Of a stretch of DNA of 6,001 bases, positions 3,791 through 4,826 are shown piece by piece. Numbering within the stretch: the stretch's first letter is position 1; the number at the start of each line of letters is the position of its first letter. The notes under the pieces are model-generated. The model did not search any database. It was not told the DNA's origin and saw nothing but the letters and a program-made list of their open reading frames with translations. The DNA is from a virus. Taxonomy: Duplodnaviria; Heunggongvirae; Uroviricota; Caudoviricetes. Location: the IMG/VR virus record IMGVR_UViG_3300013741_000057, one strand, 5' to 3'. Both the position numbers and the translations under genes were made by a program.

Positions 3791-4011
3791 TCCGAAATAT
3801 TTTCAAACGGTTTACCAATCAGACTTTCCGTTGTCCTCGTCCGGGTCAGTGGTACACCACGCCTGCAGGGCATGTTCTACGTGTTAGCCTGGTTGACCGT
3901 GAATGTCAGAAGGTGATTTGTGAACCGCTGGGCCGTAATTACCGCGTCAGTATGCCGCTTATAGCCTTTCGCTCCGGAAAAAACATGAAGCATCTCGGAG
4001 GTGCAGCATGA
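3787..4011 (+). CDS. Hypothetical small protein (74 aa), translationally coupled
   Basis: ATG at 3787 overlaps the upstream stop (ATGA), with RBS GGGGG 6 nt upstream. Its stop overlaps the start of the replication gene (ATGA at 4008-4011). No family recognised. Confidence 0.55.
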   Translation: MIRNIFKRFTNQTFRCPRPGQWYTTPAGHVLRVSLVDRECQKVICEPLGRNYRVSMPLIAFRSGKNMKHLGGAA

Positions 4012-4826
4012 GTATGGAGCTGATGGTTAAAGCGATGAAAATTCGAGTGGGTAATCCATTGCGAAAACTGGTTCTGATCAAGCTGGCTGATAATGCCAGC
4101 GATCAGGGTGAGTGCTGGCCCAGCTACCAGCATATTGCTGACCAGTGCGAGATTAGCAAACGTTCTGTGATGAATCATATTGCGGCCCTTTGTGAGTCCG
4201 GGCTGGTAAAAAAAGTCACCCGGAAAGGTGAAAAAGGTAACTCAAGTAATATCTATCTCCTTCATCTTGATGGTGCAGGAGATTCACTAGGGGGTAGTGC
4301 AAATAATTCACTATCTGGTGCAGCAAATTCACCAGGTAGTGCAGGAGTTGCACCAGGGGGTAGTGCAGGAGATTCACCCAGAACCAGTCACTCTTTTGAA
4401 CCAGTCAAAGAACCAGTCAATGAACCAATAGCTGTTGGTGCATCTGCTGATGAGTCTGTGCGAGTTCGTTCAAACCGACCGGAATACTCTCCGGAGTTTG
4501 AGCAGGCATGGCTGGCCTATCCCAAACGTGCTGGTGGCAATTCAAAATCTGCAGCCTTCAAAGCCTGGAAAGCCCGTTTGAATGAGGGGGTAAACCCCGA
4601 AACCATGCTGGAAGGTGTGAAACGCTACGCGGGCTGGGTATCTGCGATGGGTAACAGCGGCACACAATTTGTGAAACAGGCTGTCACGTTCTTTGGTCCG
4701 GATCATCATTTCGAAGAATCCTGGGAAGTTCCTGCGGTATCTGCAGCCAGACGCGAGGACCCGTACTTCAAAGCCAGTTACGACAACGTGGACTACAGCC
4801 AGATCCCGGCAGGATTCAGGGGGTGA
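4008..4826 (+). CDS. Phage replication initiator: N-terminal winged-helix domain, repetitive linker, DnaT-like C-terminal domain
   Basis: RBS GGAGG (3997-4001) 6 nt before ATG 4008. The N-terminus has an HTH-like segment (ISKRSVMNHIAALCESGLVKKV). The C-terminus ...SQIPAGFRG closely resembles the C-terminal end of E. coli DnaT (...SQIPPGFRG) as I recall it. The central linker is encoded by iteron-like DNA repeats. Confidence 0.85.
   Translation: MSMELMVKAMKIRVGNPLRKLVLIKLADNASDQGECWPSYQHIADQCEISKRSVMNHIAALCESGLVKKVTRKGEKGNSSNIYLLHLDGAGDSLGGSANNSLSGAANSPGSAGVAPGGSAGDSPRTSHSFEPVKEPVNEPIAVGASADESVRVRSNRPEYSPEFEQAWLAYPKRAGGNSKSAAFKAWKARLNEGVNPETMLEGVKRYAGWVSAMGNSGTQFVKQAVTFFGPDHHFEESWEVPAVSAARREDPYFKASYDNVDYSQIPAGFRG
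4273..4377 (+). repeat. Five iteron-like repeats GTGCA-N5-T(T/G)CAC spaced 24/21/21/24 bp, candidate replication origin inside the initiator gene
   Basis: Copies at 4273-4287, 4297-4311, 4318-4332, 4339-4353 (perfect palindrome GTGCAGGAGTTGCAC) and 4363-4377. They are followed by three AACCAGTCA direct repeats (4382-4390, 4399-4407, 4411-4419). The layout parallels ori-lambda, which lies inside the O gene linker. Confidence 0.5.

Follow-up and report, generated by a model that had tools for sequence, protein, structure and literature searches.

In phage lambda, the origin of replication (ori-lambda) is situated within the gene of the initiator O, and O uses its C-terminal part to recruit the P-DnaB complex, that part specifying the interaction with P. 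A modular kinship of lambda O (HTH_36 + 2220_C), DopC (a helix-turn-helix (HTH) domain + DnaT_C), DnaT and DnaC, together with the domestication of phage replication genes, was described by Brezellec et al. 2017 (PMC5509034). Here we consider a stretch of 6,001 nt (hereafter the window) from IMG/VR virus record IMGVR_UViG_3300013741_000057 (Caudoviricetes), which contains at positions 4008-4826 of the plus strand a replication initiator gene of the lambda-O-like SfV orf39 / ST64B sb42 / mEp460 gp43 type, encoding a protein of 272 aa. The assignment of this open reading frame (ORF) as the phage initiator, made in an earlier sequence-only reading, is borne out by a match to phrog_270 ('replication initiation protein', 1e-87), by an HTH_36 domain (1.8e-11) and by iterons inside the gene. 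It is a common and already annotated prophage initiator; what is new is how its tail is read: from genomic comparison we lean towards the view that the tail, which ends in IPAGFRG, docks host DnaC or the DnaB-DnaC complex in place of P.

The window protein agrees with lambda O in its place in the early-right operon after cII, in its N-terminal HTH_36-type origin-binding domain, in the presence of in-gene iterons in a low-complexity linker, and in having a small C-terminal domain followed by a tail. It differs in that the window phage has no P, in that the C-terminal domain is of the YPKRAGG type and belongs to another family, and in the tail itself, which is IPxGFRG rather than the ...TNTDWIYGVDL type of lambda O (seen on the GF-2 O-type protein, where a P gene is next). 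With E. coli DnaT (primosomal protein I, PF17948) it shares SQIP(A/P)GFRG at the extreme C-terminus after a disordered stretch, one residue apart, but it lacks the three-helix single-stranded DNA (ssDNA)-binding domain of DnaT, shows no match to the DnaT N-terminal domain and has no adjacent dnaC. By its sequence, the window protein would be a sequence-specific origin binder rather than a restart adaptor.

The C-terminus of the initiator reads ...ASYDNVDYSQIPAGFRG. Its last nine residues (SQIPAGFRG) are identical at eight of nine positions to those of E. coli K-12 DnaT (SQIPPGFRG, translated from NC_000913; E = 0.009 in a single BLASTP comparison), and stand at the extreme C-terminus in both proteins. 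The same comparison aligned nothing outside the tail, including the N-terminal oligomerisation domain of DnaT. The DnaT Pfam model (PF17948) gave no match to the initiator, residues 150-272 included, at E <= 0.1, searches of NCBIfam and of PDB sequences (phmmer) for a DnaT-like domain came back empty, and when a 19-sequence alignment of the C-terminal domain family was set against one of 20 DnaT sequences, hhalign returned a probability of 2.4%. The sequence-only reading had described a DnaT-like C-terminal domain; the likeness stands for the terminal nine residues and does not for a domain. The initiator therefore carries a DnaT-type terminal peptide without a detectable DnaT-type domain, and the resemblance, which exceeds chance, is confined to that peptide.

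In an AlphaFold2 model of aa 150-272 (mean pLDDT 74.8), three helices and a short one make up a small C-terminal domain (aa 162-228, 4491-4691, plus strand) with the motif YPKRAGGNSK...FVKQAxTFFGPD, for which there is no Pfam model and which is not detectably DnaT-like; a homologue search with the C-terminal half, which returned mostly fragments, provided no Pfam annotation for it either. The domain is followed by a low-confidence, predicted disordered tail (aa 245-272, 4740-4823, plus strand; pLDDT 45-57), a module exchanged between initiator families, and the tail closes with the DnaT-type heptapeptide IPAGFRG (aa 266-272, 4803-4823, plus strand) directly before the stop codon (4824-4826).

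In DnaT itself the motif is nearly invariant. Across 107 full-length enterobacterial DnaT sequences, I173, P174, G176, R178 and G179 are 100% conserved and F177 99%, while the flanks vary; the only variable position of the motif is 175, which is P, R, T, F, K, Q or H in these sequences and Ala in the window protein. Divergent, A+T-rich orthologues still end in [IV]PxGF[RK][GD]. Only 184 DnaT relatives emerged when 1.84 billion representatives were searched with a profile. This pattern of conservation indicates that IPxGFRG is under selection in DnaT. A chance match of the initiator tail to DnaT was considered and rejected: the identity is positional, the motif is invariant in DnaT, and it recurs on unrelated initiators. 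The tail goes unmentioned in the DnaT passages of Brezellec et al. 2017 (PMC5509034), and searches of ~8 million full texts for IPPGFRG, PPGFRG, PGFRG and IPAGFRG returned collagen and other unrelated papers only, with no mention of the motif.

To what extent the tail is portable is seen in a scan of IMG/VR with a DNA pattern for IPxGFRG followed by a TGA stop only, tails ended by TAA or TAG being left out. At least 120 loci encode this pattern, and 104 of 117 among the matches listed have the motif as the end of an ORF of 200 aa or more. These 104 listed ORFs form at least 13 clusters. The tail-bearing ORFs possess at least four kinds of C-terminal domain (lambda-O-type, Phg_2220_C (PF09524), the window type, and a true DnaT domain in locus L060 (PF17948, 8.8e-18)), and N-terminal domains that are HTH_36, YdaU/DUF1376-like or of other types. 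The motif is invariant across clusters with unrelated upstream tail sequences, and many of the ORFs have a longer DnaT-like tail, RD[VI]N..S.PD..IPPGFRG, such as RDVNAIPEPEDEIPPGFRG and VNHISEPDTEIPPGFRG. The tail varies within the domain family to which the window protein belongs, close relatives ending in ...SGFSEQDYGSTNFNW (the ...DYGSTNFNW type), and the last ~33 residues of the window protein also end otherwise unrelated lambda-O-type initiators (the L003 type and K-12 YfdO). An extended tail query matched 47 phage records, all of them with Escherichia, Salmonella, Klebsiella or Shigella as host and every annotated match lying within a replication-protein gene, and a genome scan with a narrower alignment revealed a divergent MDYxIPEGFRG subgroup of seven loci in Pantoea and Erwinia prophages without loaders. 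As far as these surveys extend, the IPxGFRG tail is restricted to Enterobacterales phages.

Three proteins of E. coli K-12 end in IPxGFRG, namely DnaT, YdaU of the Rac prophage (...QVNTVSLPDSAIPPGFRG) and YfdO, a remnant in CPS-53 (...DNVDYSQIPAGFRG). YfdO (L230:6879-7247, 122 aa) corresponds to the remaining C-terminal part of a lambda-O-type initiator, and its last 24 residues (REDPYFKASYDNVDYSQIPAGFRG) are identical to those of the window protein; it is followed by the PerC-like yfdN, as in the window. The tail of YdaU (DUF1376; L231:1620-3230) is identical to that of DnaT at 15 of 18 positions, and ydaV, beginning 6 nt further on, encodes a protein 50% identical to DnaC over aa 1-241, which mirrors dnaT-dnaC (L001:2239-3518). 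The ydaU-ydaV pair looks like the phage counterpart of the dnaT-dnaC operon.

We found no AAA+/IstB, lambda-P or DnaB-like coding capacity anywhere in the window. The genes that follow the initiator are PerC-like (PF06069, 1.6e-9), LexA-domain (PF01726, 3.3e-19) and rusA (PF05866, 3e-15), as had been read from the sequence before, and none of them is a helicase loader. A loader just outside the window was looked for in close relatives and is absent there as well: in the complete 44.5-kb genome of mEp460, whose initiator gene is 98.8% identical, neither the annotation nor tblastn searches with DnaC, two Zn-ribbon DnaC-like proteins, five P-like proteins and one DnaB-like helicase reveal a loader or helicase, and the region from integrase to terminase of the closest E. 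coli prophage (98.9% identity over the window) contains none either.

In other loci the tail accompanies one kind of loader. A gene encoding a protein 43-49% identical to E. coli DnaC starts a few nt after the initiator stop in 17 of the 104 tail-bearing ORFs listed, the alignment beginning at residue 1 and reaching residue 237-243 in 16 of the 17. Five further modules of tail and DnaC orthologue were seen in Gifsy-2 (gpO homologue), two Klebsiella phages, phiSTEC1589-Stx1c and L028, of which L028 shares the architecture of the window protein, and the same pairing exists in K-12 dnaT-dnaC and ydaU-ydaV. A lambda-P-like or DnaB-like gene stands beside the tail in 0 of 104 loci among the matches listed, and loci without a DnaC orthologue have no loader in the locus. 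Throughout the surveyed loci, tail-bearing initiators have either a DnaC orthologue next to them or no loader, and never an intact P-type loader or DnaB-like helicase.

Initiators with other loaders have other tails. All four examined initiators with an intact lambda-P-like gene next to them, three of which possess a true DnaT domain, end differently: phiV10 p43 in ...VPHWNSPEAWEDFL (the WNSPEAWEDFL kind), P0297 in ...LDWNNTDWIEGVWDE..., P0282 in an acidic tail and GF-2 in ...TNTDWIYGVQL. PPyecE_EH1910 has the window's C-terminal domain family with a ...NFNW tail, and is accompanied by a DnaB-like helicase and by a Zn-ribbon DnaC-like gene whose 34% identity covers the AAA+ region only; BcepMigl has the tail ...HRRGFDR and a Zn-ribbon DnaC-like gene, and a relative in Pseudomonas phage vB_Pae_U8 also has a different tail from the window's, with a primase/helicase partner. 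A Vibrio phage protein with both the N- and C-terminal domains of the window protein has an acidic tail instead. A natural swap is seen within Uetakevirus: phiV10 (L137) has, in order, an initiator (with a DnaT_C domain but without IPxGFRG), P and DUF1064, while the syntenic initiators of SPN1S (L227) and BUCT711 (L229) end in ...EIPPGFRG and are followed directly by DUF1064, with no P. We also noted a conserved acidic tail, ...GQ.(H/D)QEE(R/Q)G....ID(L/V)...D(W/R)..., on initiators with different C-terminal domains, in Vibrio phage D77 (L225:2105-2965) and in P0282 (L127:3001-4026), a prophage with a P-like loader gene; this may be another loader-specific class of tail.

The nearest described modules share parts of this arrangement. 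Rac YdaU-YdaV, Gifsy-2 gpO with a DnaC homologue and phiSTEC1589-Stx1c O with DnaC also contain enterobacterial prophage initiators, ending in ...PD..IPPGFRG. The phiSTEC1589 O protein shares the C-terminal domain family of the window protein, as do those of L077, L112 and L028, while YdaU has no significant similarity to the window's and Gifsy-2 gpO is of the lambda-O type. Unlike the window phage, these Rac, Gifsy-2 and phiSTEC1589 modules encode their own DnaC orthologue directly downstream (about 47-50% identical to E. coli DnaC where computed). DopC/DopE and phiV10 p43/p44 (PMC5509034) follow the same modular logic, in which an HTH origin binder carries a small fused C-terminal domain, theirs being shared with DnaT, together with a lambda-P-like loader. 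The arrangement there is the converse of ours: among the sequences sampled, phiV10 p43, P0282 and P0297 have a DnaT domain, an intact P-like gene and no IPxGFRG, whereas the window protein has the tail, no DnaT domain and no loader.

We suggest that the gene constitutes a one-gene replication module of a lambdoid prophage. The N-terminal HTH_36 winged helix would bind five 15-bp iterons within its own coding sequence, as lambda O does at ori-lambda, and would be connected through the low-complexity linker and the small helical domain to a disordered tail of ~28 residues ending in IPAGFRG. The tail would recruit a DnaC-type loader, in this case host DnaB6-DnaC6, to the initiator-origin complex, doing the job that P does for lambda O, and the phage would for that reason need no loader gene of its own. 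The initiator would then bypass PriA/PriB/DnaT rather than feed into them. IPxGFRG-COOH would be a portable docking motif, common to DnaT, Rac YdaU and many enterobacterial phage initiators of unrelated domain make-up; we infer a docking role in DnaC-type loading from the invariance of the motif, its portability across folds, its predicted disorder, its restriction to Enterobacterales and its link to DnaC orthologues or to the lack of a loader. The tail classes seen, taken with the lambda precedent, suggest that the extreme C-terminus carries loader specificity more generally. A wider and more tentative extension, to which we give somewhat less than an even chance, is that IPxGFRG is the missing signal that lets DnaT bring DnaB-DnaC to the PriA/PriB/DnaT preprimosome and is used by phages to take host DnaC or their own, that the tails of O-like proteins form an exchangeable loader code (IPxGFRG for DnaC, NTDWIxG or acidic tails for P, others for other loaders), and that dnaT-dnaC is a domesticated copy of a phage initiator-tail and loader module, a cassette of the ydaU-ydaV kind.

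Several points weigh against a DnaC-docking tail. Many of the tail loci are near-identical, so that independent lineages perhaps number 15-20, and the window tail matches DnaT over the last nine residues only, compared with ~19 in other phages. The association with dnaC could partly be linkage, as the tail codons abut the loader gene and both may move as one mosaic block. The exclusion of P is not absolute, given that the tail-bearing initiator of P0311 has, 300 nt further on, a P-like remnant truncated to 127 aa. A direct DnaT-DnaC interaction has not been reported: the 2024 DnaC study remarks that direct contact of DnaC with PriA, PriB or DnaT is yet to be demonstrated, and describes DnaC1331 (A84Y) as blocking the PriA/PriB pathway. 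In the 2026 preprimosome cryo-electron microscopy (cryo-EM) paper, the mechanism of DnaB/DnaC recruitment is stated as unknown and DnaT's N-terminal domain is favoured as the candidate recruiter. Lastly, the loss of DnaT residues 154-179 lowers the cooperativity of ssDNA binding in vitro, which would offer the tail region an alternative role.

That alternative can be taken further, the tail acting in cis to aid ssDNA binding or oligomerisation of the initiator and DnaT without being a recruitment signal. On dT30, DnaT 84-153 indeed binds more weakly and less cooperatively than DnaT 84-179 (Kd 27.1 vs about 12.9 uM, Hill coefficient 2.1 vs 2.7). The occurrence of the same heptapeptide after at least four unrelated domains is hard to square with packing against, or cooperation with, one fold; the tail is predicted to be disordered, and its presence tracks the type of loader and not the type of domain, so we regard a purely cis-acting tail as highly improbable. 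Similarly, the proposal of the sequence-only reading that the initiator hands off directly to the host restart machinery, with residues 150-272 forming a DnaT-like domain that plugs into PriA/PriB/PriC and leaves helicase loading to them, fits the terminal nine residues, the label 'primosomal protein I' in some GenBank records and the existence of true DnaT_C domains on other phage initiators (L060, SPN1S, phiV10). It now appears very unlikely, because the contacts of DnaT with PriA and PriB lie in its folded C-terminal domain and its acidic linker and not in the tail, and because our comparison ties the tail to DnaC-type loaders. According to the 2026 preprimosome structures, the tail not being discussed in the sections consulted, DnaT binds PriA via the folded C-terminal domain and PriB via the linker; of these two, the C-terminal domain was compared and has no detectable counterpart in the window protein. 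An origin-bound initiator, moreover, already provides the localisation and melting for which PriA is responsible at forks.

A docking peptide with a partner other than DnaC, be it DnaB or a host protein such as PriC, SSB or DnaG, with DnaC acting afterwards as usual, is a more serious contender, if still an unlikely one. Portability and conservation of the tail show that a partner exists without saying which, PriC is reported to interact with DnaT and DnaB, and direct contact between DnaT and DnaC is, as mentioned, unreported. DnaB is disfavoured because P-type modules are excluded: a DnaB-binding tail should suit them too, as they also deliver host DnaB, yet none of the 104 listed tail loci has a P-like gene and the four intact-P initiators have other tails. 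Full-length DnaC orthologues stand in tight synteny with the tail in six or more architectures, and this, together with the Enterobacterales restriction, fits DnaC better. The least probable explanation, in our opinion, is that the tail is functionless here, either as a hitch-hiking remnant at a mosaic junction or in a prophage that is replication-defective or dependent on the loader of a co-resident phage. In its favour, the last ~33 residues and the downstream PerC-like gene do move together between initiator families, and remnants such as K-12 YfdO exist. On the other hand, mEp460, deposited as a complete phage genome, carries this gene without a loader; among phage records and IMG/VR loci the gene is intact and strongly conserved (see below); and the motif stays invariant next to unrelated upstream tails. 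We therefore retain docking of DnaC or DnaB-DnaC as the preferred reading of the tail.

If this reading is true, it would account for the ability of a very common class of lambdoid prophages (the Stx2c, cdtI, SfV, ST64B and mEp460 types) to replicate with a single replication gene, and would provide a simple rule by which the helicase-loading route can be read from the tail of the initiator. Tail-bearing proteins such as YdaU, and remnants such as YfdO if it is expressed, could then compete with DnaT for the loader. The hand-over from the restart preprimosome to DnaB/DnaC is called unknown in both the 2026 cryo-EM and the 2024 DnaC studies, and the phage comparison singles out a seven-residue element rather than the N-terminal domain that is now favoured.

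The putative origin lies in the part of the gene that encodes the low-complexity linker (GGSANNSLSGAANSPGSAGVAPGGSAGDSP). Five iterons of the form GTGCA-N5-T(T/G)CAC are located at 4273, 4297, 4318, 4339 and 4363 (4273-4377; spacing 24, 21, 21 and 24). The pattern matches six times, at five sites of which one is palindromic, where 0.07 matches are expected, and 0 of 200 shuffles reach this count. Beside the iterons, at 4380-4429, are three to four copies of (A/T)GAACCAGTCA in a stretch of ~57% A+T, which by this repeat family (D3) and its composition is a possible accessory or unwinding region. The linker of L028, a distant homologue whose N-terminal domain is similar, contains GGGTGCAGCTCCTTCACCCT four times, i.e. 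the same iteron core, and the lambda-O-type relative L003 has 15-bp repeats of its own in the linker. The five in-gene iterons correspond to the origin-within-initiator arrangement of lambda, and are presumably bound by the initiator.

The N-terminal winged-helix DNA-binding domain of the initiator (aa 17-67, 4056-4208, plus strand) matches Pfam HTH_36 (PF13730) with 44.1 bits, against a cut-off of 25. Compared with DnaD-like replisome organisers (B. subtilis DnaD, SPP1 G39P), the initiator N-terminus scores 24.3 bits with the Pfam DnaD_N model, under the cut-off of 27. A GGAGG precedes the ATG, which overlaps (ATGA) with the stop codon of the upstream ORF. Of 69 matching phage records, the best 25 have the gene at 98.7-99.3% identity, Stx2c phages, cdtI, mEp460, Ayreon, 1720a-02 and 2H10 among them, and it is 98-99% identical in the 80 best IMG/VR loci of a search with the C-terminal domain alignment; its GenBank labels include replication protein, replication protein O, DnaD-domain protein and 'primosomal protein I'. 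Parts of the window are matched in 3273 of 5426 complete E. coli genomes.

The order of genes is that of a lambdoid early-right operon, with a minus-strand cI-type repressor (S24 peptidase), a cro-like gene, cII (CP76), an Ash/Rha-family regulator, a 74-aa ORF, the initiator, a winged-HTH (wHTH) + PerC-like gene, a gene for a protein with a LexA DNA-binding domain (DBD) only, and rusA; the same early-right order is found in mEp460 and the closest E. coli prophage. The small conserved upstream ORF (3787-4011, plus strand; phrog_1153, 1.3e-45) is the one whose stop overlaps the initiator start. The wHTH + PerC-like gene (4829-5317, plus strand; yfdN-like; phrog_1324, 7.6e-75; start as in the mEp460 annotation) occupies the place where relatives have the loader gene. 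Genes of this family lie directly 3' of loader-less, tail-bearing initiators of several architectures, namely in the window, L003, L067, L059, L090 and L107. The position is that of lambda ren, and there is a weak PHROG match to a Ren-like exclusion protein (E 0.0095). We rejected this gene as a candidate novel loader, since it belongs to a wHTH + PerC regulator family at the ren position and is absent from the loader-less modules L022, L038 and L068.

The LexA-DBD-only protein (5317-5643, plus strand) has 108 aa counted from the ATG at 5317, lacks an S24 peptidase domain and is equal in length to mEp460 gp46. It would be a non-cleavable LexA-like repressor in an early-right (delayed-early) operon, and might modulate SOS boxes. 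The rusA gene (5640-6001, plus strand) runs past the window end. Compared with mEp460, the window is without a 654-nt methyltransferase gene (annotated as PAPS (phosphoadenosine phosphosulfate)-reductase-like; L002:10310-10963) at the 5317-5320 junction between the PerC-like and LexA-DBD genes, and the immunity region also differs, positions 380-2096 of the window being unmatched there. Two runs of ten N are present in the window, at 509-518 and 3622-3631, the second of which breaks the Ash + Rha-family regulator ORF (2673-3701), a single gene of 382-383 aa in relatives. In the prophage closest to the window (E. coli Sx181-0-1, L140:1692-5519), the anti-phage sirtuin gene dsr1 adjoins the integrase.

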